This document shows, piece by piece, positions 929 through 22,334 of a stretch of 32,000 nt of DNA (position 1 is its first letter; each line of letters begins with the position of its first letter). Origin of the DNA: an uncultured Chloroflexia bacterium (GTDB lineage: Bacteria > Chloroflexota > Anaerolineae > Anaerolineales > Anaerolineaceae). Under the pieces are notes generated by a model. That model was not told the origin of the DNA. It ran no database searches and was given only the letters and a program-made list of their open reading frames with translations. Location of the stretch: positions 4,650,001-4,682,000 of the forward strand of contig OY969938.1 in NCBI GenBank assembly GCA_963704755.1, read 5' to 3'. The position numbers were made by a program, and so were the translations under genes.

Positions 929-2662
929 TCACGAGATAAGGTTAGTGTACCTTTTAATTGAAGACTTTAATTCTTTTGCTCCTTGCATTGGCAATGTGGG
1001 TAACATGCTGAAATACTGACGTATTGCGGCATTAATCGCTGCCAGACATGTCTTTGTTTTTACCCAGTTTTGTGGGCTAAAAACTCGATTTGGTGGCTGA
1101 GGCTCGTTGGCGGCGGCTTCTAATGCTGTGTTTAAGCAACTACCTGCAATCTTTATTATTTGCTCAACTTGATTCCGAGTTTGAGCTTGATCCCAAGCTG
1201 CCTTAGGGCTTGCAACCATCTCGGGTAGATTACTCGCGATTGAATAGCACATGGATACTGCATACAACTGGTGGTAGGGAGCATAAGATTTCATAGCTAA
1301 GAGGGTTTCATTCAATCCGAGAGTATTCTCCGATGTCCATCCTTTCATAATTTCCTGCATCCAATAATTTAAAGCTTGGGCATCATTTGGTGAGTAATCC
1401 CTTTTAAATAATTGCTCGAAATACTTATCGAAAATCTTGGTCTCACTATAAGCAATATTTGGTCTTTGTGAATGCCAAGAGATTAAATATTTTCCAAGAT
1501 CGGATAGGTCCAAGATCATGGTTTTATCTTTCGATGGAGGAGCTGCCTCTCCACGTTTTGAAATAAAATAACCGTTTGTGAAGGTTTGTTCAAACGAGTG
1601 TTTTAAGTTTAGTACCCGTTTATCATTGCTCCTTAGATCACGAGGTTTCACCACACTTTGTGAATTTGTCGAGATACTGATTCGGTCAGCTCGTTCAATT
1701 TGCGGAATTTCATAAAAACGGAACATGATATAGGCATCTTGAATTTGTTTGGTACGCTCACTGCAAGATAAGATTGTATTTAACGATTGACAGCCATTGA
1801 CAACACTTAAACCGTTGAGCTGCAAAACCCCGCTCTCAGAGAGGTGCATATGGTTGCATATTGCAGTAATGCCATTATGGAAAAAGTAGAAGTCTCGATA
1901 TTTATCACTGTAAATCGTAGATCGAATCGCTTTATTGACTGGATTATTCAAACCGAGCGATTGTCGCACATTCTTCCGAAATAATGTACCATCCTTAATT
2001 CCAGGGAAAGTAATGCAATCTTTTAATTGAATAGCTGCCACCACAGCTTCAGTTCCAGCTATTTCCATCCTTATGTACTTATCAGGTTCTAATTGAATAG
2101 TATGACGCAGGGAAGGATTATCTTTCTCTAAGGCCATATCATATCGTCGTTTTAACTCTTCTTGATCAATCAAGTTGATGGAACAGGTTAAATCATCAGG
2201 TTTTGCAATAGTCTCCTGAAAAATGGCAAGGTCATGTGTCGCAGCTTGCGTTAATTGAGCAGTTGTTATCAATTCAAAGATAATTTCGTAATCATCTTCG
2301 AGAGCGACAGCCACTTCGGATAATTTCTGTTGTAGTTTTTGGTTGCAGTTTTCTTGTAATTTGATCATGTTTTTTAATTGAGCCCAGGATGATAATACTT
2401 CTCTCAGCGGCTCTGCATCTACAAGAGTGACCCCGATGAACTTACCCTGAATTACATAAATTGCACTATTTTCTTCATCAATGTAGATGGCGTCGATTTG
2501 TTTGTCATTCGCGCCATCAGTAATGTTATATTTCGTTTCATCCAGACTACAAAGATGGATATTACGCAGATACCAAGCTACAAATCTTTGCCCATCATTT
2601 GAAAAATTTTGAGTGTAGTAAAGCTGTTTAATTTCGGTTTTAATTTGCTCGTAGATATTCAT
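929..2662 (-). CDS. AIPR-family (abortive infection phage resistance) protein, paralogue 1
   Basis: 577 aa. The N-terminus has DGANDKQIDAIYID...VIQGKF (Mrr-like D..D-x-K/QxK pattern). The central part has FFHNGITAICN and VVNGCQSLN, which match the NG-h-T-h-h and h-h-NG-x-Q-[ST] hallmarks I recognise for AIPR proteins. A GGAG lies 7 nt upstream of the ATG. Confidence 0.75.
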   Translation of the reverse strand: MNIYEQIKTEIKQLYYTQNFSNDGQRFVAWYLRNIHLCSLDETKYNITDGANDKQIDAIYIDEENSAIYVIQGKFIGVTLVDAEPLREVLSSWAQLKNMIKLQENCNQKLQQKLSEVAVALEDDYEIIFELITTAQLTQAATHDLAIFQETIAKPDDLTCSINLIDQEELKRRYDMALEKDNPSLRHTIQLEPDKYIRMEIAGTEAVVAAIQLKDCITFPGIKDGTLFRKNVRQSLGLNNPVNKAIRSTIYSDKYRDFYFFHNGITAICNHMHLSESGVLQLNGLSVVNGCQSLNTILSCSERTKQIQDAYIMFRFYEIPQIERADRISISTNSQSVVKPRDLRSNDKRVLNLKHSFEQTFTNGYFISKRGEAAPPSKDKTMILDLSDLGKYLISWHSQRPNIAYSETKIFDKYFEQLFKRDYSPNDAQALNYWMQEIMKGWTSENTLGLNETLLAMKSYAPYHQLYAVSMCYSIASNLPEMVASPKAAWDQAQTRNQVEQIIKIAGSCLNTALEAAANEPQPPNRVFSPQNWVKTKTCLAAINAAIRQYFSMLPTLPMQGAKELKSSIKRYTNLIS

Positions 2663-2900
2663 AGATGGCTCCTAAAATGGCAAGTAGTAGTACGAATCTG
2701 ATTCACCGGAAAAGTTGATTTAAATTATTTTTATAGCTCTCTGCATAGCAGATTATCCCCTCCATTATGAGGTTCCTGTTTTATCTAGATTGCTACAGAA
2801 GGATTAATTGGCATATCAATCTCTTCTATCACCTGCTCAACATTATCAAACCAGTAATTCCGATATCCATCCACAAGAAATATTTTGACCGTTCTGCCAC

Positions 2901-5602
2901 TCATTGGTGGCAATCCTTAGTATTTTGCTTTATTGAGTATTGGGCAATCAATCCCTCTAGCGTCATATTTTCAGTAATTGCATCATGAGGGATGAGTGCA
3001 TATTGCCACGGTTTGCCACCGTATTCGAGGGCATGATCGGTTGCGCGCTTGCACCAGGTTACAGCCGCATCGCGCTTTGCCTGTACAATAGGTGTATCCA
3101 CCTCTCTGCTTGCTTTCGGTTCAAGCATGTAAATACATTTGGTCACCTCGGCAACGAAGTCGGGTTGATATTCCAGTTGTTCAACGCCTGCGGCATAATA
3201 GATTTGGAATTGCCCTAGTGCTGGTTTAAACCATTTTTCTGCATAGTGATCCAAAATAATAGCCAGTTTTCTTTCTGTATCCGATTGAAATTTTTGGACC
3301 GGATAGAGGCACCGGGTAAACCCACCAAATATGATTTGATTGATTTTGTTTTTGTCAGCGGGCGGTACATGAAAATCCTGAATGGGCTGTGCAGCATAAG
3401 AAGTAAAAGCGCTCTCTTTTAATGCCATAAAACCACGCGTTACATTTACTTCGTAACCACTGTTTTTTTCCCACCGATGAGCCTGCATTTGGCTATGGAT
3501 GAGGTTAGCTAATTGGCGTTGATAATAAACAACCACATTGAGCACTTCATCTTGACTAACCAGATAACTTTCTAGGTGACGTACCATTTGACCAGCCAGT
3601 TCATAAAGTAAATCAGCTTGGTTGTCATAGGAGATATCGGAGAAATCAATCAACTGCCGCACGATGTAATCTTCAAGTCTTGTTTCAGACGCAACCCGAT
3701 TGCCAGTGCTGAGGGATTCCTGCTCGTTGTTTTGTAAGCTGCGAATCAACAGATCTCGATCAACCGGCTGAAAATGAACATTGGTTGTATCGATCTGAAA
3801 ATTGTCGAAACCACTACTGACCACTCCGGTAGGAACGACCACGATCCGCGGGATATCAATAGTTAGTTTTTGTAATTGGATAACCGCCTGTTTTACGATT
3901 GCTTTAATGTCTGGTGCTGGCTGAGGCTCAAGCCCAGGTAATTCCGTTTGAGCGGGCGGTATATATTGCCTTTGAATCTCTTGCACGATTTCGTTCATCA
4001 CATTGGGTTGCTGTAAATGGGTCGATGTGGGCAAAAACTCACGTCTCTGAATGGCTTGATATGCAAGTTGGGCAACCTGTTGTTCTGCAGGGGTTTTAAA
4101 AATTGAAGATGGAATGATCCGAGTGCCCCCACTTAAAGAAGCTGTTAGTGTTACCCCGGCTAGTTTGACTCGCAATTGTTGGCGTTGCTAAGACGGTAGT
4201 CATCCGCGAATTATCGTCCGGCGGTTCTAGAATAAGTTGTTCTAACCGAATAACAGAATCGGGACGGTTGGCTTCATCCACAATCTCCTGGAATTTATCA
4301 TGGGCAACGATACTCAACCTGTCAACCGCTTTTATACCAGTTCTTTTGCCGAATGGTAGACGTAAACCACGACCAATAGATTGTTCAATCAAGATCCTTG
4401 CATTTGCGGCTCGTAAGGGAACAATTGTATAGAGATTGGTAACATCCCAACCCTCTTTGAGCATATTCACATGAATGACGATTTCAGTTGGTTCGTTAGG
4501 GTTTTCCACTTCTAGAAGCCGTGCGACAACTTCATCTTCTTTTGTGGTGGAATCAACTTGAATGACTTTTGTTTTGTAGCGTCCCTCAAAAAATTCATCA
4601 GATTGAATCAGGTTTAATAACGACCGAGCATGAGTTGTGTCCCGCGCAATAACCAACATAAATGGTTTGACAAAGGGTTTGCCCGTCTGCAGAGCATAAG
4701 TTTCCAATTCCACTTTAACGTTTTCGTGCAGACGAATGCCGTCTTGTAATTTGATTTGCTCAATCTCAGCAGGGGAGTGATTTTGAGGTTGAAAATTCTT
4801 TTGGGTCACGACCGCAGGCTCTTTAACAAAGCCATCTTGTAAGGCTTTTGCGAGCGGATAATCAAAAATTACATTTTTGAATGGAATGGCTCCTCGTCCT
4901 GTTTCGGTAAATGGGGTCGCGGTTAATTCCAACCCCAGAACTGGCTTGAGCTCATTAATCGCCCGTGCACCAGCGCTGGCTCGGTAACGGTGTGATTCGT
5001 CCATCAGCATCACCAGATCCGGTAAACCGGCCAGATAATCAAAGTAACTTTGCCCAATATACTCTGAAAGGCGTTTGATTCGAGGGGAATTTCCACCGCG
5101 AACCTCGGAGTTTATCTTTGATATATTAAAAATCATTAATTTTACATCGCAGAATACTGTCAAATAAGGTGCCGGCTGAATTTTCGTAAGTGTCTCCCGT
5201 AATAATTTCTGGGGGATTGGTAGCAAATTCAGCGATGCCTCTAAAAACGTATTTGGGTGTGTTGGGCGTAAAATCAGTAATCAGTTTATTGTAGATGGTT
5301 AGATTAGGCGCAAGTACAAAGAAATTATTCAGCCCATAAGCCAGATGCAAATAACTGATAAAAGCCCCCATCAGCCGGGTTTTTCCAACGCCAGTTGCCA
5401 GAGCAAAACAAAGCGAAGGAAAATCTCGTTCAAAATCAGTGACCGTAGGAAATTCTGAGTGAATGGTTCCCAGAACTGCTTGTAAATCAGGCTTTTTATT
5501 GGGCGGAGTAATTTCCATTACTCGGTCTAGAATTTCAAGTGAGCGTCGCTGCGGTGGACGCAGACTGAGTCGGCCGCTAATTGCGTTGACTAATCGATGC
5601 AT
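2901..5602 (-). pseudogene. res: Type III restriction enzyme Res subunit (SF2 helicase + PD-(D/E)xK endonuclease), read across three frames
   Basis: ORF 5126..5602 carries motif I (ALATGVGKTR). ORF 4096..5226 carries motif II (LMDESHRYRA) and later helicase motifs (VNMLKEGWDVTNL, QSIGRGLRL). ORF 2901..4175 carries a nuclease-type motif (YQPDF...MLEPKA). Frame breaks lie at about nt 5140-5165 and 4170-4185. The ATG overlaps the mod stop (TAATG) and AGGAGGGG lies upstream. Confidence 0.85.
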
Positions 5603-7371
5603 TAGTTTTCCCCTCCTAAATTAAAACCCAGTTGGCGCTCTACCGATTTTGAATCGATTAAATCTTCTTCATCTTGTTGGGTTAGAGGCGGAGTCAAGGG
5701 TAAGTTAGCTACTTGCAGACTATAATCGTCGTGACCGTATTCACAGCGGGAAAGCACCGCCTGAGGAATCTTTTTGATTGTCAGGTTGGGAATAGCATCT
5801 CCACTGGCGGAACGGAAGGCCGAGCACAATACCAAGAGCGTCCGTTGAGTTCCCACTTCTTCGCTGAGCGCAAGTAGTTGTTCATGGGTCAGGGTTTGTG
5901 TTGTGATATAGATAAAGTCCTGCTCTGTGGAATATCCGTGCATCCAATAGTGTTCGTCGCTGGGTGCATAAATAAACCCTTCCAGTTTACAAACAGCTTC
6001 TGTCAACATACCGGGGTTATATTGTTTGTTAATGACCCAGTTGCCCCAGTGGTCTTTCTCCAAAAGAGAAGGTGCTAACTGATAATAGCGGAATCCCCCA
6101 CCACCCCGCCACTTAAAAGCTTCGGTAATTCCGCTTAAATCTTCTCCATCAATCACTCTTTTCATCCGTGGAATGATATGTGTTTGGCAATGATCTCCTA
6201 ATTCCACCATGATCCAGCGTCTCCCCATCTTGTGAGCAACAGCACCTGTTGTGCCTGAGCCTGCAAAGGAGTCAAGAACAACGTCTCCCGCTGATGTAGC
6301 TAGTTCTAGGCAGCGGCGAATTAGTCTTTCAGGTTTTTTTCCCTTCCTAAAAGTAACTCCTCCTTCATTCGCTATGCCCTCCCAAGCGATATCAGTCCAA
6401 ATATTCGTCATGATCGCGCTAGCGGAAAGGACGCCATCAATTTCCACAACATTCTTTGAATAAAATAGTAGTTGTTGTCCATCGAGAATATAAACGGTAT
6501 CTAATCCACGATCTCGTTCAAGTTGAAATACTTTTCCGGGATTTAATTGAGACACTTTTTTTAGTCCGATAATAGCCTCTCCAGCACCAGTATCACTGAT
6601 TGATGCCAAGCGACAAACTCTACTTGCATTATCTACAATAAACTGATGAAAATGCTCTAAAGCAGAATCTGGTCTACGTGAGCGGGGAGGTGACGCTTTT
6701 TCATATCCATCCATAAGCGGGATTAATTTCCACTGATCGAATGGTTCACTGGGGTTATTTAACCATTTATTATAGGCATAATCTGGTGTGCGTCGAACTC
6801 TACCTGAGTTTTCAACGAAATTATTTTTATCATATGCATACCAAAGAATGTATTCAGATGCTTTAAAAACCCCCGGATTAACTGTGCTAAATGCAGAGGG
6901 TGAACGCGAAGAAACAGTGATCCTATTAACGAAGTTTGAGCGCCCGAACACTTCATCTAGCAATACCTTACAGTAATCCAGCTCATCATCATTTAGATGA
7001 ACAAACAATGACCCTTCCTTACATAGTAACTGACGTAGAACTACAAAACGCTCTCGCATCAGACCAAGCCAAATTGAATGTTCCAATCCATCATCGTAGT
7101 TTTCAAACATTTCACCTGTATTGAAAGGTGGATCAATATATATACATTTTACTTTTCCTAAAAATTCTGACGATAGAGCTTTTAAAGCCAATAAATTATC
7201 GCCAAATATCAAACGGTTATCGAAAATGTCATTATCCGTCACTCGATGGTTGGCATGAAAGCTTAATTCCGGATCTTCCAATAAAATGCGCGGTTCTAAG
7301 CGCGGTCGATTATCTTTGCCGATCCAGGTTAATTCCAATTTTTGTTTGTGATCAGTCATATTGAATTCCAA
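5602..7371 (-). CDS. mod: Type III R-M Mod subunit (beta-class N6-adenine/N4-cytosine DNA methyltransferase)
   Basis: 589 aa. Motif IV (CIYIDPPFNTG) lies N-terminal to motif I (VLDSFAGSGTTGAVAHKMGRRWIMVE), and the N-terminus KLELTWIGKD is typical. This IV-TRD-I order, followed directly by res, fits Type III. The track start at 7371 is a TTG; the first ATG is at 7359. Confidence 0.85.
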   Translation of the reverse strand: MEFNMTDHKQKLELTWIGKDNRPRLEPRILLEDPELSFHANHRVTDNDIFDNRLIFGDNLLALKALSSEFLGKVKCIYIDPPFNTGEMFENYDDGLEHSIWLGLMRERFVVLRQLLCKEGSLFVHLNDDELDYCKVLLDEVFGRSNFVNRITVSSRSPSAFSTVNPGVFKASEYILWYAYDKNNFVENSGRVRRTPDYAYNKWLNNPSEPFDQWKLIPLMDGYEKASPPRSRRPDSALEHFHQFIVDNASRVCRLASISDTGAGEAIIGLKKVSQLNPGKVFQLERDRGLDTVYILDGQQLLFYSKNVVEIDGVLSASAIMTNIWTDIAWEGIANEGGVTFRKGKKPERLIRRCLELATSAGDVVLDSFAGSGTTGAVAHKMGRRWIMVELGDHCQTHIIPRMKRVIDGEDLSGITEAFKWRGGGGFRYYQLAPSLLEKDHWGNWVINKQYNPGMLTEAVCKLEGFIYAPSDEHYWMHGYSTEQDFIYITTQTLTHEQLLALSEEVGTQRTLLVLCSAFRSASGDAIPNLTIKKIPQAVLSRCEYGHDDYSLQVANLPLTPPLTQQDEEDLIDSKSVERQLGFNLGGEN

Positions 7372-7375
7372 TCTT

Positions 7376-9013
7376 CTATGCCGCTTCAGGCTGATTGATA
7401 TGTGCCATAACAGTTTGGGCTAACGGTTCTGCATCAGTCATGGTCCTGAATATCTTTAAATACCCTTTTTGGTCAGCCGCAAACATAGGTTCAGCAATGG
7501 AATAAATTTGTTCTGCCAATTCCAATATTTGGCGAGATATTTCAAGTTTATCATTGTCAGAAAGAATGAGCTCGACTTTATTCAGTATTGCTTGATTGAG
7601 CCTGCCCCAAATATGCATAATGAAATACCGTCCATGCCGGAAAAACATTTGCCGGCGCCCCGTCTCAGCATTCTCCGCATGTTCAAATAAATTATCTATA
7701 TAACGAAAGATTTGCACTGCATGGTAAAGTTGCGTACCTGTCAGACCAGCCCGGAAAAGTCTTGAATAATAAGTGCCATTCCGATCACTAATCAAACTAA
7801 TTTCCCTTTTTGCGACAACGATTATCTGCGTCTCCCCTGAAAAACAAGCTAATGCTCGGGCAGCTTCTGACAAAGAGAATTGGTTTTCCTTACTGGACAA
7901 TGATTCTGCAGAAGGTCGATAATTATAAATAACTTCGGATATCGCAAGCTCCTGCCGCAATCGTTCTTGATTGGGATCAAGTGCCGCAAAATCCTCTCGG
8001 TTCACTGAGGTTTGTGTATTGCGTGCATGGGTTATTCGACGACCAAGCTCGATTGAATTCTCGTCAACTCCAATTTCCAATATCGTTACCATTATTCTTG
8101 CTTCGGCTGAAAGCTCACCAATTTGACTTGCTTGACCTATAGAACCAACTGTTTGTGCACCATTTACAATCGAAAAATTATTGAGAGTAAATGTGGCGCG
8201 ATCTTGATTGTTTGGAGCAAAATTATATTCCGAGCAAATGACTGTCAAACCATTATTTAGATAAAATAATTCATTAGGGTTTGCCTGAACCGTTTCGGAA
8301 ATTGCAACGTTTACAGCCTGATTGCCCAGGTAGTGCCGAATATTTTTCTGGAACAACGCATTTCCATATTGTTGATAAATTTCATTCAAATGAGATGCAC
8401 GAACAAACCCATAGACTGCTCTTCTGGGCTCAGTAAAATAATTCCAGTGCTCAACGGATATTTCCACGTTGATTGTCTCTATAGCTTGCTCTTCGGTAAG
8501 CCACCTGTGAATTACAGGTAGGCCAATATCGCGCCAGTCAAACCAATTTTTTAGTGCGTTCTGGCCTATTTTAAAAGCTTCTAGATCACTAATTGCATGC
8601 GGTCCTAATGGATTACCCAAATAGACAATACCTATTAAAATCTTGGTGTTTGGCATTCCAAGTGCTTCTTCAACCTCAGATTGAACACGTTCAAATTCTG
8701 GGTTGCGACCAGATTGGAAAAAACGTTCGTATCTCTCTGCTAATAGATCAGAGACCCCAGAAATAAAGGTAAGAGTAGAGGCACGATCTGGAGCATCACC
8801 AAATTTCGATTGAGCTAAACAAAGTATATTTTGTCTGCGATCATAATAAATTGCGTCAATCCCATTATCATCGCCACAATCTACGACTGAGGCAACAGAA
8901 TCGATATCACTACAACCGGAAAGCTTTTGAATGGAGAAAGCAGCTAATGCACGACTAAACTGATCCTTTCTTTGGTCTTCCTGAGGCCGATTAGGAAAAC
9001 GAGATGGCAACAT
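7376..9013 (-). CDS. AIPR-family protein, paralogue 2
   Basis: 545 aa with CGDDNGIDAIYYD...CLAQSKF at the N-terminus, and YLNNGLTVICS and IVNGAQTVGS centrally. The motif set and order match 929..2662, but the sequence is otherwise strongly diverged. Its stop lies 4-16 nt upstream of the mod start. Confidence 0.75.
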   Translation of the reverse strand: MLPSRFPNRPQEDQRKDQFSRALAAFSIQKLSGCSDIDSVASVVDCGDDNGIDAIYYDRRQNILCLAQSKFGDAPDRASTLTFISGVSDLLAERYERFFQSGRNPEFERVQSEVEEALGMPNTKILIGIVYLGNPLGPHAISDLEAFKIGQNALKNWFDWRDIGLPVIHRWLTEEQAIETINVEISVEHWNYFTEPRRAVYGFVRASHLNEIYQQYGNALFQKNIRHYLGNQAVNVAISETVQANPNELFYLNNGLTVICSEYNFAPNNQDRATFTLNNFSIVNGAQTVGSIGQASQIGELSAEARIMVTILEIGVDENSIELGRRITHARNTQTSVNREDFAALDPNQERLRQELAISEVIYNYRPSAESLSSKENQFSLSEAARALACFSGETQIIVVAKREISLISDRNGTYYSRLFRAGLTGTQLYHAVQIFRYIDNLFEHAENAETGRRQMFFRHGRYFIMHIWGRLNQAILNKVELILSDNDKLEISRQILELAEQIYSIAEPMFAADQKGYLKIFRTMTDAEPLAQTVMAHINQPEAA

Positions 9014-9149
9014 ATTGAAAAACCTTGCTTCTAGAATAGTTAAAACCTGTTTTTCTGTTTAATTCTGCACCAGCATTTGCTCTAAGCATAAAAATTATCC
9101 TGATTTATCAAAATATCTTATTCTGACATCTCTATTCGACATATATTGT

Positions 9150-11444
9150 TTAAGGTGCAACCATAGGGTATAAACGAATTTTTCCGCAACCCCCGCCGCA
9201 TTCCCAATAACTACCGCTTTTATTTTTAGTAGGAAGTTGATGACATTTTTCACATAAGATGGCATCTGCAAAAGCGAGCACATTTTCTCCAAAGGTTCGA
9301 ACCATATTATCAGAAATTCCTGCCGAATCAGGGCTAAAATGCGCTCCTACCTGGTTACGAATCCATGTATCTGCTGTCACCGACTTAATCAAGGGAATTA
9401 AATCAATCGACTTTGTAATGATACCTGCATCATCCAGATGCTCCACCCGTAGCAATTTTTGTAGATTTTTGTCAATGCAATCCGCTAATTCTCCTAAAGT
9501 GTACCGCGCCAGTTGTTTGCGTGGCAACCTGCATTGATAACGAAGGGTTAACTCGTCTAATAATTGCTCTAACAAAATTCCGGCTCGAGAAGCAATCGCT
9601 TGCCTGTCAACCTTCGGGGCAGCAACAACATTGCGCAATTCATTGACAGCTAACGGTGCATGACTATGTTTAATGCCACTTTGCAAATCCCAGCCATATA
9701 ATTCGATCAATTCCGCTGGCATTCCCTTCCCCTGTCGAACACGGTCAAACCAGGCTCGTGAATGAGTTGTGATGATCACATGGCCAAAGTTTGGTGCCTC
9801 ATCGTTAATAAGCTCAATCACCCGGTCAAGGTGCGGGTCATCCACAGACATTAGCACGTCATCTAATACAACAAGAGCATTTTCAGATTGTTTGGCTAGC
9901 GCCAGATAAACGCACAGACCCAATGTATCCAAATGAGCTTCACTATAATAGGCGACAGGAGAAATATCATTGTTGGTGCCAAATTTTCCCTTCATGGTGA
10001 GGGATCCTATTGTATTGGGTTTCATACCAAAACTAGGCTCACCAAGAGGCTCATTAGGATGGATACGAGCATAAAGTGCACTGACAGTTCCGCTAATTCC
10101 ATCAACAATATTTTGAACATGCTGCTTACGTTCCTGTTCGACAACAGCTAGTATTGCTCCCAACCGTTGGGAAACGGCATGTTTCATGGCTAATGATTGA
10201 TTTAGATCATCGATTGTTGCCAGATGAGTGCTAATTGCATTATGTTGCGCGATTTTTTGATCCCCAGAAACTATATCAAGTTCCAAATCAGATCGATTCG
10301 CAGACATTTTTTGAATTAATTGACGAAATTCATCTGATGCTGGCGAACTTGGAATTGCAGATAACCCCTTTGTTAATTTTGTTTTGGCAGGAAATAGCAA
10401 TTTGTGTAATTCATTCGCTGCGGATTGCCACTTTAGGTTAGCGACACTCCTTGCACCTTCTGATTGCTGAATTGTTGATTTATATTGCTCTATTTGATTT
10501 ACTATGGATTGAATTGTTTTTAGTTGAGTTAATTGATAAGTTATTTGAGATAGTAAGGAATCGTGCGGTTCTGGTTTTGAACAAACCGGGCAACTATTCA
10601 TTTCTGAATGTTTCTCCAAATAGGTTTGTGCACTTTGAAGCGTTGAGACTAAATCTGCATTTGTTTGCTTTAAACTAGCTTCTTCTAGTTGTTTTAATAA
10701 TGTCGTTTGTTTCAATAAGTTAGTATTATATTTAGCTTCTTCTATGACTAATTCATTCTCTGATCGCACAGCAGTATCAAATAAATCTCTCAATTCTTTG
10801 TCTTTGGCTAATTGAGTTTTCAAATCCTCAATAGATAGTTGAATAGCTCCTCGTGCCCAGAATAAACAATCACCAACAGGTTTTCCTTCAGCCTCCCAAA
10901 ATTGCTGTAAAGTTGTTTCAGCGGTATCTTTTTGAGTAATAGAACGTGTTACATCCTCTGAGGCGGTTTTATTTGCTGCACGCAATGAAGTCTCAGCACT
11001 TTCGATTTGAGGAAAGACAATAAATTCCTTAAGGTTTTTATATCGATCTCCATCATTAACTTCCATTATGCGGGTGATATCAGCTCGCCGAAGAATAAAT
11101 GCACGGGGTTGAGAAGATGGAGTTGTTACTGGTCTCGCGCCCTGCAATTTTGCATTCCAGGTCTGACCTCCATATATCATTTCTATTTGCAAGTCCTTTG
11201 GTTGCCCCAATGAAGAAACTATGTGAGTATGATATGGGGTTGTTCCATTACGGAGCTGAAGAGAACCAAATTCATTATTGCAAATAAAATCCAGCGCATC
11301 GGCAACAGAAGATTTTCCTGACCCATTTTCACCAAAAATAAGGGCTATTGAATGTTGTTGTTGGAACTCGAATACCACTGGTAAAGTTGCCCCCCGGAAA
11401 GAAGAAATCTGCAATCTTTCAATGCGTTTCTTACCTGTGGCCAT
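9150..11444 (-). CDS. SMC/Rad50-like ABC ATPase with a coiled-coil CxxC hook and a C-terminal HEPN-like + Cys4 module (RloC-like candidate anticodon nuclease)
   Basis: Walker A is FGENGSGKSS. A ~330-aa heptad-rich insert has CPVC (nt 10581-10592) near its midpoint. The signature-like segment is YSEAHLDTLGLCVYLALA, Walker B is ALVVLDDV and the H-loop is IITTHS. A ~170-aa tail carries RNQVGAH (nt 9339-9359) and CEKC...CGGGC (nt 9186-9254). The ATG at 11444 is preceded by GGGAGG; the track start at 11471 is a TTG. Confidence 0.7.
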   Translation of the reverse strand: MATGKKRIERLQISSFRGATLPVVFEFQQQHSIALIFGENGSGKSSVADALDFICNNEFGSLQLRNGTTPYHTHIVSSLGQPKDLQIEMIYGGQTWNAKLQGARPVTTPSSQPRAFILRRADITRIMEVNDGDRYKNLKEFIVFPQIESAETSLRAANKTASEDVTRSITQKDTAETTLQQFWEAEGKPVGDCLFWARGAIQLSIEDLKTQLAKDKELRDLFDTAVRSENELVIEEAKYNTNLLKQTTLLKQLEEASLKQTNADLVSTLQSAQTYLEKHSEMNSCPVCSKPEPHDSLLSQITYQLTQLKTIQSIVNQIEQYKSTIQQSEGARSVANLKWQSAANELHKLLFPAKTKLTKGLSAIPSSPASDEFRQLIQKMSANRSDLELDIVSGDQKIAQHNAISTHLATIDDLNQSLAMKHAVSQRLGAILAVVEQERKQHVQNIVDGISGTVSALYARIHPNEPLGEPSFGMKPNTIGSLTMKGKFGTNNDISPVAYYSEAHLDTLGLCVYLALAKQSENALVVLDDVLMSVDDPHLDRVIELINDEAPNFGHVIITTHSRAWFDRVRQGKGMPAELIELYGWDLQSGIKHSHAPLAVNELRNVVAAPKVDRQAIASRAGILLEQLLDELTLRYQCRLPRKQLARYTLGELADCIDKNLQKLLRVEHLDDAGIITKSIDLIPLIKSVTADTWIRNQVGAHFSPDSAGISDNMVRTFGENVLAFADAILCEKCHQLPTKNKSGSYWECGGGCGKIRLYPMVAP

Positions 11445-11643
11445 CAAGTCCTCCCGTTTCTTCGATTTCAATTGTTTTTTCTATCAATAATTGCCAATCC
11501 TCTGGTTTGGATACGCCTCCTACCAATATTTTTATTGCTTCGGGACCATATATCGCAGGTAGTAACCCTTCACTAACTAACCGGGTCACAGTCTTTTTTG
11601 CTAACAACTCGCAAGGTGTCGTGTACGGAATTTCATCTATCAT
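11431..11643 (-). CDS. Small (70 aa) acidic-tailed protein of unknown function, translationally coupled to the ABC ATPase
   Basis: A strong SD (GGAGGA) lies 6 nt upstream of the ATG at 11643. Its last 14 nt overlap the ATPase ATG (GATGGCCACAGGTAA). I recognise no family. Confidence 0.6.
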   Translation of the reverse strand: MIDEIPYTTPCELLAKKTVTRLVSEGLLPAIYGPEAIKILVGGVSKPEDWQLLIEKTIEIEETGGLDGHR

Positions 11644-11708
11644 TTTTTATCCTCCACTAATTGCAAATCCCCACCAATTAGAAAACGTCCATTGTTACAA
11701 AAGATTTG

Positions 11709-14561
11709 CTAAATAATCTCCCAACGGATGCAAAACAATTTTGAAAGCGATTGCTGTTGAGTCATTCGGCTCTCAGTATCCCTAATTATTTCATCTCTTT
11801 GAGTGTCTATTTCGTCTTGCGCTTGGAAAAGAGCCCGACGTTTCTCCGTTCTTTCTTTTTCAAGAGATTTCACTTCTTTTTGAGCCGCAAGTTTTTCTTC
11901 TAAAGTCAAAGCAGCGATGGCATAACGCCGGGCTTCTTTGATTCTTCGATCATATTCTTTAATTTCCCGCTCCAACATGACTTTGCGATCATCCGACCAG
12001 GCTTCTAATTTACTAATTTCGGCCTCGAAGATTTTTGCATTCCTCAGACTAATTTCTAACAGAATGGTTTTTTGAACATCCGCTGTTTGACCATCAAGGG
12101 TAGGGGGTGGTTCGATCAGTTCGGTTCTACCATTAACTTGTGCAGGCAGTTGAAACAATCTTCGAGCTATGTCTTCTTCTAATAATTTCCCATCATCGCT
12201 GAATGCAGTCCAAATCAGCCTATCTTCAATTTGAGAAAGTGACTCAACAGATAATTGAGATAATTGACACCACCCTTGTTTTACTGGCAAGTTTTCAAGA
12301 ATGGTAACTTTATTGGGGGCACTGGAATAATCAAAAATCAATTCAGCGAGCACTAGAGAACGCTTTTTCGCCTGTTCAATTACTTGTTGCGCCAGAGGAT
12401 GAGATAAACGATAAAAATATGCATCGCCTGAACGGCGCGGCAACTCATAAAGACCGGTCGGTATATCCTCATGCCCATAACGGCCATCATTCAGAACAAA
12501 CGAAGAATCGCTAATAAAATTGGCATGGCCATCTAATTCAAAAGCGGTCAGCTGCATTAACATCTGCTCATACCGATTAAGATTTTGTCGTGTATCGATT
12601 GCTCGAATACGCAACTTCTCTTTTACTTCATCATCAAAATGTTCTAGCAAAGATTGGCGAGCATAAGTCATAGCTTCTTGGATTTGGTCACTTAATTCTT
12701 CTTGCAATTGATCAAAAGAGGCGTTTATTTCTTCTGAGGTTCGACAATTCTGGTAAATATCAGCAATGCGCGTCTCAAAGGCAACACCTGATTCAATTGC
12801 ACCTAAAACTTCATCACTGGCACCAAAGACTCCAGCAAAAAGTTGAAATTTTTGGTCCAGAAGTTCATAAACTCGTTGATCAGCAGCGTTCTTTTTGTTT
12901 AGAAAATTAACCACAACAACGTCGTATTGCTGACCATAACGATGACAACGGCCAATTCGCTGTTCCACCCTTTGTGGGTTCCATGGAAGATCATAATTTA
13001 CAACCAAAGAACAAAATTGCAAATTAATACCTTCCGCTCCCGCTTCTGTAGCGATCATAATCTGACCTTCATCATGAAAGTAATCTACCAGCGCGGAACG
13101 CATATCAGCTGTTCGGGATCCGGTTACCCGGTCTGTACCTTTGAATCGGGTTATCCAATCGTTATAAATTTGTTTCGATTTAGCATCATTGTTGGAACCA
13201 TTAAACAAAACGACACCATCTTGATATGGGCTGTCTATCAATAATTTTAAAAGGTACTCCTGGGTTCGGCGAGATTCAGTAAAAATAAGTGCTTTGGGGG
13301 CTGAACCGACTTCAGCTGCTTTGGTAAAAGCTGTCTCTAAGGCTTTCAGTAAGGCTTTCCCTTTAGCGTTTTCGGTAATCGATATTGCCAGGGTGTAAAA
13401 CCCCCTTAGTTCAATAATCTCCGCTTCCAGGGCTTTTCGCTCGGTTTGTGTCAGATCAGGAGGTTCATCCTGCTGATCCCACTCCTCGGCTATTTCATCC
13501 AAAGCTTCATAATCCTCATCCAAAGTATCTTCAAGCGATTTGAGAGATGATTCGGCTTCATCGAGTTTTTTTTGCAGGCGTTTAGCCATTTTATCGAGGG
13601 CACTTGCAATAGCAAAGGAAGAACTTGCAAGCAATTTTCTAAGGACCAAAGTAAGCAATTGGCGTTGACTCGAAGGCAAAGCATGCAATTCTGGTTTACG
13701 CAGATATTCGGAAACCAGGTCATAAAGGATTAATTCGTCATTGCCGGGGGTAAATTCCTGTAAAATGGGCAAGCGTTTGGTGTACTTAATGTAAGGCAGG
13801 ACTTGGCTGCGTAAAGTGCGCTGGCATATAGGTTTTAACCTTGCCTTGAGGGTTAGAAAAGTACTTGGATCATTTAGATCACTGAATTGCTCTCGAAAAC
13901 TTCTAAGATCACCAAAGGTATACTCGTCAATAAAACTGACTAAACCAAATAATTCAAGCAGCGAATTTTGCAAGGGTGTAGCGGTTAGTAATAATTTATT
14001 AAACCCTTTAAGTGTGTCGCGAAGTTCATTTGCAATTTTATTGGATTTTTTGTACACATTACGGAGGCGATGAGCTTCATCAATCACAACCAGATCCCAT
14101 GGAATGCGCATAACCTCAGAAGATTTATTGCGGGCAAAATGATAAGAGCAGATGGTTATATTATCCCCTTCAAAGGGATTGCGTTTACTTTCTTTATAAA
14201 TATGATTGAATGATTTTGTTTCCAGAATTTGACATGGTAAAAAGAATTTTTCTTGCAATTCCTGAAACCATTGTTTGCGTAAATTTGAGGGGGTAATAAC
14301 TAAAATATGTCGTTTTCGTTCTGCCCAACATTGTGAAATGACAAGTCCAGCCTCAATGGTTTTTCCCAGCCCTACCTCATCGGCTAACAAAGCCCCTTTT
14401 GAAAGTGGCGATCCAAAGGCAAATAAGGCGGCATCAACTTGATGCGGGTTCAGATCCACTTGTGCATCCACCAGAGTTCCAGCAAGTTTTTCAGGATCAT
14501 CAGCTGAATGTCGCTTGGTTAATTCGTAGGCAAAGTATTTAGCGTGATATGCAGTAAGCAT
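11709..14561 (-). CDS. SNF2/RAD54-family SF2 helicase with a ~400-aa C-terminal extension ending in a coiled coil
   Basis: 950 aa. Motif I is LADEVGLGKTIEAG, motif II is VVIDEAHRLRN, motif III is LLLTATPLQNSLLELF, and motifs V/VI are ATEAGAEGINLQ...NPQRVEQRIGRCHRYGQ. The N-terminal YHAKYFAYELT and the charged heptad-rich tail (aa ~850-930) lie outside the helicase core. Confidence 0.9.
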   Translation of the reverse strand: MLTAYHAKYFAYELTKRHSADDPEKLAGTLVDAQVDLNPHQVDAALFAFGSPLSKGALLADEVGLGKTIEAGLVISQCWAERKRHILVITPSNLRKQWFQELQEKFFLPCQILETKSFNHIYKESKRNPFEGDNITICSYHFARNKSSEVMRIPWDLVVIDEAHRLRNVYKKSNKIANELRDTLKGFNKLLLTATPLQNSLLELFGLVSFIDEYTFGDLRSFREQFSDLNDPSTFLTLKARLKPICQRTLRSQVLPYIKYTKRLPILQEFTPGNDELILYDLVSEYLRKPELHALPSSQRQLLTLVLRKLLASSSFAIASALDKMAKRLQKKLDEAESSLKSLEDTLDEDYEALDEIAEEWDQQDEPPDLTQTERKALEAEIIELRGFYTLAISITENAKGKALLKALETAFTKAAEVGSAPKALIFTESRRTQEYLLKLLIDSPYQDGVVLFNGSNNDAKSKQIYNDWITRFKGTDRVTGSRTADMRSALVDYFHDEGQIMIATEAGAEGINLQFCSLVVNYDLPWNPQRVEQRIGRCHRYGQQYDVVVVNFLNKKNAADQRVYELLDQKFQLFAGVFGASDEVLGAIESGVAFETRIADIYQNCRTSEEINASFDQLQEELSDQIQEAMTYARQSLLEHFDDEVKEKLRIRAIDTRQNLNRYEQMLMQLTAFELDGHANFISDSSFVLNDGRYGHEDIPTGLYELPRRSGDAYFYRLSHPLAQQVIEQAKKRSLVLAELIFDYSSAPNKVTILENLPVKQGWCQLSQLSVESLSQIEDRLIWTAFSDDGKLLEEDIARRLFQLPAQVNGRTELIEPPPTLDGQTADVQKTILLEISLRNAKIFEAEISKLEAWSDDRKVMLEREIKEYDRRIKEARRYAIAALTLEEKLAAQKEVKSLEKERTEKRRALFQAQDEIDTQRDEIIRDTESRMTQQQSLSKLFCIRWEII

Positions 14562-14600
14562 TTTTTTCTCAGTTTAATAAGTGGTATTTTTGCATGAAGA

Positions 14601-14843
14601 TTATGCTAAAGGAGAAATCTTTTCGTAAACTAAAAGATCCCCCACTTGGCAATCAAAATATTCACACAAAGCCTTAATCACGGGTGCGTCATAGCGGGAT
14701 ACTTGATTGTTCGCCCAGGAGTTGAGTGTAGACCAGGCAATGCCGGTCTCGCGCTGCACATCCATCAAAGCAATGTTTTGCTGCTGTATGGTCGCTTTTT
14801 GAGCCAACAAAATGCGAAAGTGATTGACAATTTTTCCGGTCAT
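14601..14843 (-). CDS. XRE/Cro-C1-type helix-turn-helix transcriptional regulator
   Basis: 80 aa. NIALMDVQRETGIAWSTLNSWANN fits the XRE HTH pattern and ALCEYFDCQVGDLL is the typical C-terminal helix. GAGG lies upstream of the ATG. Confidence 0.8.
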   Translation of the reverse strand: MTGKIVNHFRILLAQKATIQQQNIALMDVQRETGIAWSTLNSWANNQVSRYDAPVIKALCEYFDCQVGDLLVYEKISPLA

Positions 14844-14871: not shown

Positions 14872-14900
14872 ATCATAGGTGAGGACACACAATTTGTCAA
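14872..14900 (-). promoter_or_regulatory. Near-consensus sigma-70-type promoter for the XRE gene (and possibly the whole minus-strand train)
   Basis: On the minus strand: TTGACA (14900..14895), a 17-nt spacer, then TATGAT (14877..14872), about 28 nt upstream of the XRE ATG. Confidence 0.5.
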
Positions 14901-14949: not shown

Positions 14950-14973
14950 AAAATAGAATATAAATTCTATTTT
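14950..14973. promoter_or_regulatory. Perfect palindrome AAAATAGAAT-ataa-ATTCTATTTT in the divergent intergenic region (candidate operator)
   Basis: Perfect 10-bp arms at 14950-14959 and 14964-14973, lying between the minus-strand XRE gene and the plus-strand module. Confidence 0.4.
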
Positions 14974-15197
14974 TAAAAGTCCAATAATAAAATCACCGGT
15001 AAAAAAAGACATGATCAACCTAAGTACCTATCAACTCTTCTTTCAGCCAGTTCATTCGCCTCCACAACGTTGGATAGTAACCATAGTGGCTTGCTTCGGT
15101 TCTGTCTATGAGCCAGGGTTATTCACATACCAAGTTTTAACAACAAATGCTCTGCAGATTTTCTGTGGCAAATGGGGAAATATTGGGAGGATTGTTT

Positions 15198-16121
15198 ATG
15201 AGGAGATCAAACCAGGTAAAAGCCAAATTCGCTTTGAGCCGCTACAAGCCATCAATTCTGATGAGTTACCTAAATATGAAATACTTATTCGCGAGGAGGC
15301 AGTTGGTCCTAGAGGAAGAACTCGCTGAAATTTTAGGTCAAGAAGACATTGTCAAATTAAACCTAATGGAAGCACTTTACGAAAAACGTACTGAACGTCG
15401 ACAAGAATTTATCGCTTGGTTAATCGGCCGGCTTCAGATCTTTGGGTATCATAATCTTCCACCGGATATGAAACCAAATCCTACTGAAAAAATTGAAGAA
15501 CATTTTGATTTTCCCATTAAAGGTACACCAGCTGAGTTTGGCGTCATGCTCCGGCAGTTTACCCAGATACTACATTCTCAAACTGAACATCACCAATTAG
15601 TATGCCAAACCCTTAATCCGGGCAACCATAAAGATATTAGTAGCATTCCTTCAGATGCTAACCCTGTTGAGGTAAAGCTTACTGCTGGAAAAAACCTGCT
15701 ATCAATTCATGCCCATGTTCTTCCCTCAACAGGATCGTTATTGCGTATACATTTGAATGGGGATAGAACCCTATGGCTCCTATGGGATAAAATTCGAGAT
15801 GAACTTGAAAAATTGGGGTGGTTTTCATTACCTGATATTCCAGAAGAACCTGCTCGTAATGAAATTAAACCAGAACCCCAACCTCAAGAAAAATTACCTC
15901 CTTCTGAAGTATGGATGGGCATTCCAGATGTGGGTGCTAACCGGGAGATACTCCGTTTCTGGTATCAGGGATTTACTTGCGGGCAGATTGCTGTTCGAGT
16001 AGGTCTGAATGGAAAAACGGTCCTCAATCGGATCAATAAATTAAGAAATGAATTTGGTATCCAGATAGTTCCTTATCGAAAGTCAAATTTCATCAAGAAA
16101 CCGAAAGATAAACCCTCCTGA
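15198..16121 (+). CDS. Hypothetical protein with a C-terminal sigma-70 region 4/LuxR-like HTH. It may be the 3' part of a longer gene beginning at 15011.
   Basis: GGGAGG lies 7 nt upstream of the ATG at 15198. The C-terminus is ILRFWYQGFTCGQIAVRVGLNGKTVLNRINKLRNEFG. ORF 15011..15328 overlaps it in the -1-relative frame and reads like genuine protein. Confidence 0.55.
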   Translation: MRRSNQVKAKFALSRYKPSILMSYLNMKYLFARRQLVLEEELAEILGQEDIVKLNLMEALYEKRTERRQEFIAWLIGRLQIFGYHNLPPDMKPNPTEKIEEHFDFPIKGTPAEFGVMLRQFTQILHSQTEHHQLVCQTLNPGNHKDISSIPSDANPVEVKLTAGKNLLSIHAHVLPSTGSLLRIHLNGDRTLWLLWDKIRDELEKLGWFSLPDIPEEPARNEIKPEPQPQEKLPPSEVWMGIPDVGANREILRFWYQGFTCGQIAVRVGLNGKTVLNRINKLRNEFGIQIVPYRKSNFIKKPKDKPS

Positions 16122-16131
16122 CTTATTATTT

Positions 16132-16192
16132 GGGATAAAAAGGGATATTCAAGGGATAAAGAGGGATATGCAGGGCACTTGAACAAGGGATA
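16132..16192. repeat. Iteron-like array: five GGGATA repeats plus one degenerate GGGCA, at roughly one helical turn spacing
   Basis: GGGATA starts at 16132, 16142, 16153, 16163 and 16187; GGGCA starts at 16173. Spacings are 10, 11, 10, 10 and 14 nt. The array begins 11 nt after the HTH gene stop. Confidence 0.7.
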
Positions 16193-16210
16193 TTCCAAAT
16201 GGCAGAATGG

Positions 16211-16241
16211 CGACGTTGAATCAAACGTCGTCATTTTTTTT
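16211..16241 (+). terminator. Rho-independent terminator/attenuator between the iteron array and the replication operon
   Basis: CGACGTT (16211-16217) pairs with AACGTCG (16224-16230) around a 6-nt loop. TCA and then eight T (16234-16241) follow. The AAAGGAG RBS of the next gene starts 5 nt later. Confidence 0.55.
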
Positions 16242-16256
16242 GCCAAAAGGAGTTCT

Positions 16257-16460
16257 ATGCTCAATTGTCTCAAAGTTTTGTTTGAACAGCCGGAGTTTTC
16301 AGCCCTGATCCATCTCTCTGAACGTGAGATGCGCACGCCGGCTGACCAGGTGCGCCTCATCGTCCGACTGGAACTTGTCCGGCGGGGATTGCTGCAGGAT
16401 ACCCTACCCAACCTCAATCATCCACAGGAGGATAGCCTCAAACATGAATCAACCTGCTGA
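16257..16460 (+). CDS. Small ribbon-helix-helix (CopG/Arc-like) protein, candidate
   Basis: AAAGGAG lies 5 nt upstream of the ATG at 16257. LKVLFEQPEFSALIHLSEREMRTPADQVRLIVRLELVRRG fits a beta-strand/helix/helix RHH pattern. The upstream part of the track ORF (16179-) lacks an RBS. Confidence 0.45.
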   Translation: MLNCLKVLFEQPEFSALIHLSEREMRTPADQVRLIVRLELVRRGLLQDTLPNLNHPQEDSLKHESTC

Positions 16461-16668
16461 AACCCTCCAATTGTCACAGGAGGAGCAGGGCAGGTTGTTA
16501 GCGCGCGTCTACGCTTTCATCCTCAGCGATCAATTTACAGGAACACAAAAAGAAATTAATGCGGTCGAAACAGACCAGAAAATCTCAAAGAATAGCAAGA
16601 ACAATAAACACGTAATCTCACAAGAAATAGACGCTCAATTTGTCCAAAACCAGGAGCCATTGCCATGA
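16444..16668 (+). CDS. Small hypothetical protein (74 aa)
   Basis: The ATG at 16444 overlaps the end of the RHH gene. Its stop overlaps the next gene's start (ATGA at 16665-16668), which suggests operon-style coupling. Confidence 0.4.
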   Translation: MNQPAETLQLSQEEQGRLLARVYAFILSDQFTGTQKEINAVETDQKISKNSKNNKHVISQEIDAQFVQNQEPLP

Positions 16669-19313: not shown

Positions 19314-19542
19314 AGAATTTATTAGTGATCCCTATGCGGTGCTTGCCCTGGCAGTTGTGTTCAAAGCTGCCTTGGATCTCAAGAGTAAGAATCCGACCTG
19401 TGTTTTGGAAGCTCGGACCTGGCTGCAATTCGTGGGTTTGAGCTGGTGCCAAATGCTGGGAATTTCAGAAAAGGAGATATCCAAATGGGTTGCTGGGAAC
19501 TATTCTCTTCCACCCAATGCTCACCGTAACTGGCGTTATTAA
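19306..19542 (+). CDS. Hypothetical protein (78 aa)
   Basis: The ATG overlaps the end of the replication gene by 8 nt. No recognisable motif. Confidence 0.4.
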   Translation: MNEEFISDPYAVLALAVVFKAALDLKSKNPTCVLEARTWLQFVGLSWCQMLGISEKEISKWVAGNYSLPPNAHRNWRY

Positions 19543-19604
19543 AGACTTTCCAGGTTGGCTCGCTACAACCGGAGCAATTCTTTGCAATTTCGAATACTCG
19601 CTTA

Positions 19605-19636
19605 TTTGTTCTATGGTATATAATAGATAGAACAAA
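19605..19636. promoter_or_regulatory. 10-bp inverted repeat enclosing a TATAAT box (candidate promoter/operator for the membrane-HTH/integrase operon)
   Basis: TTTGTTCTAT (19605-19614) and ATAGAACAAA (19627-19636) are perfect inverted repeats. The 12-nt spacer contains TATAAT (19619-19624). Confidence 0.35.
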
Positions 19637-19807
19637 ATAATAAGACGGTTCGTGCAGATGTAGCGAGCACCTACACGAACCTGACCCCAACCACCGTTCA
19701 AGCCGGCAGTAGGGGCTGATCATATTATAGCCGATCAGCCAGGATTCGCCCTCGGTGGGAGTTTATCACCGGGGGCATTCTATTGCCCCCTAATAAGGAG
19801 GCAATTT

Positions 19808-20593: not shown

Positions 20594-20603
20594 GAGGTTT
20601 TCA

Positions 20604-22284: not shown

Positions 22285-22334
22285 TGTCGATCATATAGTG
22301 AGTATACCAAGCAAGTAGCGTCTGGGTATTGTAG

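Follow-up and report, generated by a model that had tools for sequence, protein, structure and literature searches.

A stretch of 32,000 nucleotides (nt) from an uncultured Chloroflexia bacterium (assembly GCA_963704755.1, contig OY969938.1, positions 4,650,001 to 4,682,000 of the forward strand; hereafter the window, numbered from its first letter) carries at positions 929 to 14843 a train of eight co-directional genes of defence type. What kind of unit do these genes form? An initial annotation, made from the sequence alone, had left the choice between a layered defence island and a single integrated super-system. Comparison with related loci points instead to a hybrid, in which a restriction-modification (R-M) backbone and an ATP-binding cassette (ABC) ATPase with its small partner recur together and the two AIPR genes are optional add-ons. 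The locus is probably an SNF2-linked type III R-M operon, lying on a mobile island, which acts as a scaffold for inserted abortive-infection-type genes.

The layout of the train proved to be as first described. All eight genes lie on the minus strand and their order (XRE, SNF2, a 70-amino-acid open reading frame (ORF), ABC ATPase, AIPR-2, mod, res, AIPR-1; Table 1) agrees with the ORF list of the window. The lengths of all seven junctions were reproduced exactly. XRE is separated from SNF2 by 39 nt and SNF2 from the 70-amino-acid ORF by 65 nt; the stop of this ORF and the start of the ABC gene overlap by 14 nt when the ATG at 11444 is used; 136 nt separate the ABC gene from AIPR-2, and AIPR-2 is followed by mod after 4 nt (TTG start) or 16 nt (ATG start); mod and res share one nucleotide at 5602 (TAATG), and res is followed by AIPR-1 after 238 nt. 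The family labels given in the initial annotation are upheld by Pfam and PADLOC: HTH_26 for the XRE protein, SNF2-rel_dom and Helicase_C for the SNF2 protein, SMC_N and AAA_23 for the ABC ATPase, AIPR for both AIPR proteins, N6_N4_Mtase and MTase_III for Mod, and ResIII and REase_III for Res. One feature had been missed. The res gene, taken to be intact, is spread over three frames, with two single-base insertions relative to its relatives, so that the train consists of seven intact genes and one disrupted gene.

The question of which blocks travel together was addressed with about 170 related loci. Each scan covered at most the best 80 loci by match, and the fractions reported here are indicative and not census values. 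The ABC-anchored sample comprised 80 genome loci and two metagenome contigs (L081 and L082) with the closest ABC homologues. Where the ABC protein possessed its C-terminal domain, an SNF2 homologue (48-81% identical) lay upstream in 55 of 62 loci, mod and res lay downstream in 46 of 58, and SNF2, mod and res were all found in 42 of 52. SNF2, ABC, mod and res occurred in one order and on one strand in 47 of the 82 ABC-anchored loci, and gaps of at most 60 nt were found between ABC and mod in 25 of 44 analysable loci and, likewise, between mod and res in 25 of 44. According to their record titles, these loci belong to Chloroflexota, Binatia, Nitrospirota, Acidobacteriota, Elusimicrobiota, Spirochaetota, Bacteroidota, Cloacimonadota, Armatimonadota, Synergistia, Bdellovibrionales, several proteobacterial classes, Deinococcota, Phycisphaerales, Heliomicrobium, Verrucomicrobiota and a cyanobacterium.

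Metagenome loci anchored on Res complete this picture. In this sample mod adjoins res in 57 of 59 loci, and among the 35 loci with at least 7.5 kb of upstream sequence, SNF2 was found upstream of res in 25, an AIPR gene in 9 and an ABC gene in 7; no locus of the Res-anchored sample had both an ABC and an AIPR gene. The backbone is also carried by plasmids lacking the ABC gene, as HTH (helix-turn-helix)-SNF2-mod-DUF262-res in Rhizobium, as HTH-SNF2-IS256-Abi family protein-hypothetical gene-mod-res on a Salmonella IncFIB plasmid and as SNF2-AIPR-HTH-hypothetical gene-VapC-mod-res in Deinococcus. A megablast search of the 16.7-kb region of the window against plasmids gave no match, and neither the AIPR-2 protein nor the ABC protein had an exact counterpart on record. 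Cargo found in the slots of other loci includes OLD ABC-TOPRIM proteins, HerA-like ATPases, AIPR, a DUF1016/YhcG nuclease, AAA_15/21 proteins, Fic, Schlafen, GHKL ATPases, an IrrE-type peptidase and a subtilase. Taken together, these gene-order comparisons show a backbone, SNF2-Mod-Res, whose gene order and strand are conserved across many lineages as well as on plasmids, and three slots, between SNF2 and mod, between mod and res, and after res, for interchangeable second-line defence cargo. By the same comparison, the slot between SNF2 and mod in the window holds two cargo units, the pair formed by the 70-amino-acid protein and the ABC ATPase, and an AIPR-2 cassette. Of the sub-blocks that the initial annotation had proposed to compare among homologous islands, SNF2-mod-res and the pair therefore recur together; the AIPR genes and XRE do not.

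The product of the 70-amino-acid ORF, here called the EDW protein, is acidic (isoelectric point 4.7) and carries the conserved motif '...G...aEDW.L..E'. With a profile hidden Markov model built from 43 copies, its gene was located immediately before the ABC gene in 79 of 84 sources, including loci without SNF2 or R-M genes, and the ORF usually overlaps the ABC start. The protein belongs to no NCBIfam or Pfam family, and Pfam at E <= 10 brought no useful match. Judged by this conservation, the ORF is a real gene and the EDW protein is predicted to accompany the ABC ATPase obligately. On a Hymenobacter plasmid and at about 10 genome loci the pair occurs by itself. A shorter form of the ATPase, which matches only about residues 6-610 and is without the C-terminal domain bearing an RNxxxxH motif, was seen in eight loci (L003, L011, L058, L060-L062, L071 and L072); it keeps the EDW partner, and SNF2 and mod-res are mostly not nearby.

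The ABC protein matches Pfam SMC_N and AAA_23, and its best match in the defence libraries is PADLOC LmuB (E 1.9e-21). It carries a Walker A motif at residue 38, a Walker B motif at residue 524, a CPVC sequence (285-288) at the apex of a coiled coil, the sequence RNQVGAH (696-702) within a helical C-terminal domain, and a four-cysteine ribbon at 731-753. The Walker motifs and the CPxC at 285-288 are invariant across the alignment, as are R696 and H702 in 16 of 16 and 66 of 66 aligned sequences; in the ribbon, C731 never varies in either alignment, and conservation is 90% or more at C734, C749 and C753. In a full-length AlphaFold2 model (mean predicted local distance difference test score, pLDDT, 81.8), residues 279-293, with the CPxC, form the loop that joins long antiparallel helices, and the best fold match of the model is Rad50 (E 9e-14), followed by heads of SMC proteins, JetC and LmuB. 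The last 195 residues, modelled with a pLDDT of 90.4, fold into a helical bundle with a small beta ribbon. This domain was found in 466 clusters among 1.84 billion representative proteins; in the best 150 of the 466 clusters it forms the C-terminal end, mostly of proteins of about 760-790 amino acids, the rest being shorter entries.

The label HEPN, which the initial annotation had attached to the ABC protein, found no support in Pfam (no useful match of the C-terminal domain at E <= 10) or in NCBIfam, and fold matches were weak only. Foldseek searches with the C-terminal domain against the PDB and viral libraries gave no match at E <= 1e-3; among the weaker matches were 1wwp_A (probability 0.90) and, at rank 44, the HEPN toxin SO_3166 (5yep_B). 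The description of the ABC protein as RloC-like fared better in part. It stands for the architecture, but the protein scores 30.5 bits against Pfam AAA_13, where the cut-off is 36, and covers only positions 515-579 of that profile, so that RloC-like is here an architectural description and not a family membership. Among the putative guard components that had been proposed, both AIPR proteins were confirmed as members of their family, and the RloC-like protein in its architecture.

Both AIPR genes are clear members of their family. AIPR-1 scores 119.2 bits (E 4e-34) and AIPR-2 135.1 bits (E 5e-39) against Pfam AIPR (PF10592), with a cut-off of 25, and both match PADLOC AbiU (E 1.5e-34 and 4.8e-31, respectively); the two proteins are 24% identical to each other. 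Neither gene is present in the nearest relatives L081 and L082, which share 83% DNA identity with the window. DNA homology to these contigs runs from 14921 to about 9153 (9153-9165), where it ends at the ABC stop codon, and resumes at the start of mod (7359-7361). This break indicates that AIPR-2 is a 1.8-kb cassette standing in the place of a roughly 80-nt spacer. Another metagenome contig (L087, 97% identical) shares the cassette, and an AIPR gene also follows the ABC gene in three unrelated loci (L023, L027 and L064). A 13-nt unit, ATCTCTATTCGAC, is repeated 2.2 times at the cassette border (9115-9142), within the spacer that separates ABC from AIPR-2. In L087 the AIPR-2 ORF begins 25 codons further upstream, at an ATG 61 nt past the ABC stop; an extra A in the window (A-run at 9054, within 9040-9090) shifts this ATG out of frame, and the start of AIPR-2 and the 136-nt gap are therefore uncertain.

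AIPR-1 lies beyond res, in the place of a DUF4357 gene in L081 and L082, and DNA homology to these contigs ends at 2867. More than 3,500 homologues of its subfamily were found, and those at 69-85% identity adjoin type I, IIG and II R-M genes. As its neighbourhoods suggest, AIPR-1 is a third companion of R-M systems, one that moves on its own. That AIPR/AbiU1 genes often accompany R-M operons, those of type III among them, has been published (PMC2292703, PMC3506569). In four loci (L171-L174, 1-17758), AIPR-1 homologues (69% identical) lie beside an XhoI-type type II R-M pair, inside long same-strand arrays of small ORFs with a spacing of about 200 nt that resemble integron cassette arrays.

The SNF2 protein, which the comparison places as the predicted head of the conserved backbone, has its Walker A motif (GLGKT) at residue 64 and a DEAH box at 161. 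Besides Pfam SNF2-rel_dom and Helicase_C it matches PADLOC DrmD with 685 bits, and also the BrxH models, and reaches 693.6 bits against NCBIfam DISARM_DrmD_b, under the curated cut-off of 950. The closest solved structures are those of RapA, and the C-terminus gave no useful Pfam match at E <= 10.

Mod, an N6_N4 methyltransferase of the beta class, has the motifs DPPF (residue 76) and FAGSG (residue 365) and matches Pfam N6_N4_Mtase (E 2.5e-36) and PADLOC MTase_III (E 7e-194). Its central target-recognition region (6279-6953) has no DNA similarity to L081 or L082, whereas both flanks are about 73-80% identical. This pattern fits a swap of the region, and the methylation site probably differs from that of the close relatives.

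The state of res was defined against the same two contigs, in which Res is an intact single protein of 899 (L081) and 903 (L082) amino acids. The three ORFs of the window (5126-5602, 4096-5226 and 2901-4175) lie in three frames, are 82-94% identical to these proteins and match positions 2-69, 88-396 and 524-865 of PADLOC REase_III; Pfam ResIII was matched too. Aligned with the DNA of L081 and L082, res of the window shows one surplus G, at 5134, and one surplus A, within 4164-4166, and the first insertion leads to a stop at 5126-5128 after 158 codons. The sequence still encodes the helicase and nuclease motifs GVGKT, DESH and PD...EPK, so that the damage is either recent or an assembly artefact. 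The closest solved structure to an intact Res homologue is EcoP15I Res, and of 44 comparable loci, 41 have res as an intact single ORF. Neither mod nor res contains simple-sequence repeats, and a phase-variation origin of the frameshifts was rejected on this ground. All train genes other than res are full-length ORFs, and comparison with a 97% identical contig (covering 13226-7024) revealed no net frameshift in SNF2, the 70-amino-acid ORF, the ABC gene and the covered parts of AIPR-2 and mod. Both frame-breaking changes thus fall in res. This clustering fits real decay better than random error, though the numbers are small. The initial annotation had presented the R-M genes as a first-line system, which is probably not restricting here: with res frameshifted twice, restriction is probably lost or impaired. 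A type III Mod is able to methylate without Res.

The initial annotation had also reported a single near-consensus promoter, upstream of XRE. In a promoter scan of the 16.7-kb region, TTGACA-17-TATGAT at 14900-14872 ranked first and was the only site with 11 of 12 matches. The region contains 42 promoter-like sites, against 38.3 +/- 6.6 in shuffled sequence, which is not above chance, and the scarcity of other strong matches is for this reason weak evidence on transcription units. L081 has the identical -35 and -10 hexamers around a diverged spacer, an argument that the promoter is probably real. The XRE protein (Pfam HTH_26, E 1.3e-14) is a possible controller of the operon. An 80-amino-acid HTH_26 gene occupies the same position before SNF2 in L081, the sole close relative whose contig covers that region and hence the one in which conservation of XRE and promoter was seen. 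Elsewhere, a mixed HTH profile, too heterogeneous to inform, placed an HTH gene (XRE-like or other) upstream of SNF2 in 4 of 85 loci, and on the plasmids of Salmonella and Rhizobium SNF2 is preceded by an unrelated HTH gene. An inverted repeat with perfect 10-nt arms, AAAATAGAAT-4-ATTCTATTTT, lies at 14950-14973, about 50 nt upstream of the -35 hexamer; this repeat, the only palindrome found, is not conserved in L081. With regard to control of the C-protein type, L081 thus keeps the HTH_26 gene and the promoter and lacks the palindrome.

Resemblance to known systems was then considered for each part of the locus. Like the type III systems EcoP15I and EcoP1I, the R-M genes encode an N6_N4 Mod with DPPF and FxGxG motifs and a Res combining an SF2 helicase with a PD...ExK nuclease, and are joined by a TAATG overlap; they differ in having a conserved upstream SNF2 partner, cargo between the subunit genes and a Res that is frameshifted twice and therefore not a single polypeptide. 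With RloC and PrrC the ABC protein shares a Rad50-like ABC head and a C-terminal helical domain with an R-x5-H motif, with RloC alone a CxxC apex on the coiled coil, and with PrrC alone the place inside an R-M operon. It departs from both in that it stays under the AAA_13 threshold, matches no HEPN model, and has an extra zinc ribbon and an obligate small partner; moreover, its R-M partner is of type III and not of type I, and the pair survives without R-M genes, unlike in the PrrC model. PrrC is embedded in the EcoprrI type Ic R-M locus, and it has been proposed that ABC-HEPN proteins encoded in R-M operons form a second defence line (PMC3710099). The likeness to Lamassu consists in the match of the ABC protein to LmuB, a fold search that finds LmuACB and an SMC-like sensor controlling an effector. 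Here, in contrast, the effector-like domain is fused, the EDW partner is unrelated in sequence and the gene lies within an R-M operon. Membership in Lamassu was rejected, as no neighbour matched LmuA or LmuC.

A related published theme is that of the MORC/paraMORC R-M operons with SF2/SNF2 helicases (Iyer, Abhiman and Aravind, 2008; PMC2292703), which likewise combine a methylase, a helicase-nuclease and an accessory ATPase, often with AIPR, and GHKL ATPases fill the slot between SNF2 and mod in sister loci; the accessory ATPase of the window differs in being an ABC protein of SMC/Rad50 type with a fused effector-like domain and a small partner. The SNF2 protein is matched over most of its length by DrmD, BrxH and RapA models; DISARM class 1 DrmD and BREX type 3 BrxHII are likewise SNF2 motors of methylation-based defence. 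Here, in contrast, DrmD_b remains below its cut-off, no BrxC or PglZ occurs in the train, and the partner is a type III Mod/Res. DISARM was rejected on the DrmD_b score and because no DrmA, DrmB (DUF1998) or DrmC was found among the train or right-flank proteins. The BREX-related Hma/DUF499 systems, defined by a DUF499 AAA+ ATPase with a methyltransferase and an SNF2-nuclease (PMC8565338, PMC12839542), were rejected as well, the ATPase here being of ABC/SMC type HmaA giving a generic SNF2 match only, and no other Hma component being found. MADS, which requires MAD6, MAD7 and MAD8 (bioRxiv 10.1101/2023.03.30.534895), was set aside on weak matches of the ABC protein alone to mad3 (E 1.5e-9) and mad8 (E 2.6e-4). 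With the AbiU1/AIPR abortive-infection proteins, both AIPR genes share matches that pass Pfam AIPR and PADLOC AbiU, and their association with R-M systems is published (PMC3506569); what differs here is the presence of two divergent copies in one locus, one inside the operon and one after it.

The comparison shows the architecture, and from it we infer how the locus might operate. The XRE protein and the conserved promoter would give one long transcript. Mod would methylate a short asymmetric site, probably unlike that of its relatives after the swap of the target-recognition region. An intact Res would cut unmodified DNA; truncated after 158 codons, it has probably lost restriction here while methylation may continue. 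The ABC protein would be an autonomous sensor-effector in the style of RloC or Lamassu, its zinc-hook coiled coil and ATPase head sensing DNA ends or stalled complexes and setting free the C-terminal RNxxxxH domain, which is likely an RNase and would halt translation. The regulator or antidote of the ABC protein would be the EDW protein, and the module would probably be kept silent without need for Res. Such autonomy from Res is supported by the occurrence of the pair alone on plasmids and by its intact state beside a broken res. The AIPR proteins would be separate suicide nucleases that act independently. The SNF2 motor probably aids DNA tracking or remodelling for the R-M part, which is the least supported step.

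The right flank of the train (15147-24484) resembles a mobile element (Table 1). The G+C content climbs from about 0.40 to 0.57 by 25-27 kb, and no tRNA gene marking an integration site was found in the window. At the left edge (4-300), a 98-amino-acid ORF has a weak match to a PD-(D/E)xK nuclease (E 0.007, under the cut-off) and may be a gene fragment. Downstream of the intact operon in L081 (13700-18121) lie a gene for a 1224-amino-acid HEPN_Swt1-SNF2 fusion and a SACS-family gene, both of defence type.

Table 1. Positions of the genes of the train, the promoter and the right-flank features in the 32,000-nt window.
Feature	Position	Strand	Description
XRE	14601-14843	minus	80 amino acids, XRE/Cro-type HTH
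SNF2 ATPase	11709-14561	minus	950 amino acids, RapA/BrxHII/DrmD-like
Small acidic EDW protein	11431-11643	minus	70 amino acids
Rad50/SMC-like ABC ATPase	9150-11444	minus	764 amino acids
AIPR-2 gene	7376-9013	minus	545 amino acids; cassette including flanks 7362-9152
Type III Mod methyltransferase	5602-7359 (ATG) or 5602-7371 (TTG)	minus	585-589 amino acids, apparently intact
Type III Res, disrupted	2901-5602	minus	three ORFs in three frames
AIPR-1	929-2662	minus	577 amino acids
Sigma-70-like promoter TTGACA-17-TATGAT	14872-14900	minus	-10 hexamer ends 28 nt before the XRE ATG
Unassigned protein	15147-16121		324 amino acids
DUF3854 protein	16665-19313		882 amino acids
HTH protein	19808-20593
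Large serine recombinase	20604-22019
AbiEi/AbiEii pair	23009-24484

The scaffold reading has to be weighed against simpler and against more integrated ones. Independent systems might have gathered at a hot spot, with a shared strand due to chance or insertion bias and no functional interaction. The pair alone on the Hymenobacter plasmid and in about 10 genome loci, the AIPR-1 relatives beside type I, IIG and II systems, the occurrence of SNF2-mod-res without the ABC gene, the very varied slot cargo, and the AbiEi/AbiEii pair and serine recombinase in the wider window all agree with such an island, which we nevertheless hold to be unlikely: the order and strand SNF2, pair, mod, res is kept in 47 of 82 ABC-anchored loci from many lineages, gaps of at most 60 nt are found in 25 of 44 loci at each of the two junctions, SNF2 lies upstream of res in 25 of 35, and the cargo sits within the operon, from SNF2 to mod, rather than beside it. 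At the other extreme, eight genes on one strand, with short gaps and one strong conserved promoter, could make up a single obligate super-system that needs each of them, both AIPRs and XRE included, and MADS provides the precedent of an eight-gene methylation-linked operon (bioRxiv 10.1101/2023.03.30.534895). This is largely refuted already by comparison and very improbable, given that relatives at 83% DNA identity lack both AIPRs and carry a DUF4357 gene after res, that the AIPRs share 24% identity, that an HTH gene precedes SNF2 in only 4 of 85 loci, that Res is broken, and that the MADS models match weakly and for mad3 and mad8 only. A chiefly mechanical role for the ABC ATPase, as an integral subunit with which the restriction machine loops or bridges DNA and not as an abortive-infection guard, is also rather doubtful. 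A Rad50/SMC-like fold with a zinc-hook apex would suit that role, GHKL and other ABC ATPases fill the same slot in sister loci, and DNA looping has been proposed for the ATPases of MORC/paraMORC R-M operons (PMC2292703); yet the pair is found where no R-M genes are nearby, the C-terminal domain with its invariant RNxxxxH looks effector-like, and the pair is intact here despite the broken res.

Two further readings have some standing, each on the improbable side. In one, both frameshifts of res arose as errors of assembly, and the organism itself has a fully working R-M system. All catalytic motifs are kept, identity to intact homologues is high, the DNA comes from one contig of 4.87 Mb that may have been built from long reads, and a further single-base difference from the 97% identical contig lies in the A-run at 9054. 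On the other hand, the G at 5134 is outside a homopolymer, the second insertion lies in a run of only three A, and about 10 kb of neighbouring coding sequence is without a frameshift, which makes two errors in one 2.7-kb gene unlikely at random. In the other, held just as tentatively, SNF2-EDW-ABC(RNxxxxH)-Mod-Res is a distinct, unnamed five-component defence system, in which an SMC-like sensor and an SNF2 motor are coupled to the restriction enzyme; the ABC protein could, for example, read DNA ends or stalled Res-SNF2 complexes and trigger its RNase when restriction fails. Several points weigh against the scaffold reading itself. Its fractions come from best-matching loci, the HEPN identity of the C-terminal domain is only putative and unproven, the role of the SNF2 protein is deduced from co-location, and the frameshifts of res, covered by a single contig, could be assembly errors; the Res-anchored metagenome scan yielded no near-identical contig spanning them. 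Moreover, cargo without backbone and backbone without cargo also fit plain accretion at a hot spot, with no coupling.

The general theme of such operons is published. Earlier work describes accessory ATPases, SF2/SNF2 helicases and AIPR as parts of R-M operons (PMC2292703), and toxin-like and HEPN domains embedded in R-M operons as a second defence line (PMC3506569, PMC3710099). The exact SNF2-EDW-ABC-Mod-Res module and the EDW protein are apparently not described in the searchable literature, although a 2020 classification of ABC ATPases may already cover the ABC clade. Current defence finders would split this locus into a type III R-M system, AbiU and a stray DrmD-like helicase, and the module would be missed. 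In the scaffold reading, a vague defence island becomes a defined architecture that recurs and has clear borders, made of one backbone, three slots for cargo and an obligate sensor-partner pair, which opens experiments on how first-line restriction is wired to suicide-type defence. With res broken and the accessory genes next to it intact, the locus is a natural experiment and suggests that the accessory modules are independent of the nuclease. The EDW protein is a testable candidate regulator for SMC-like immune ATPases and, should the five-component reading be true, it would be a new kind of regulator of these proteins.

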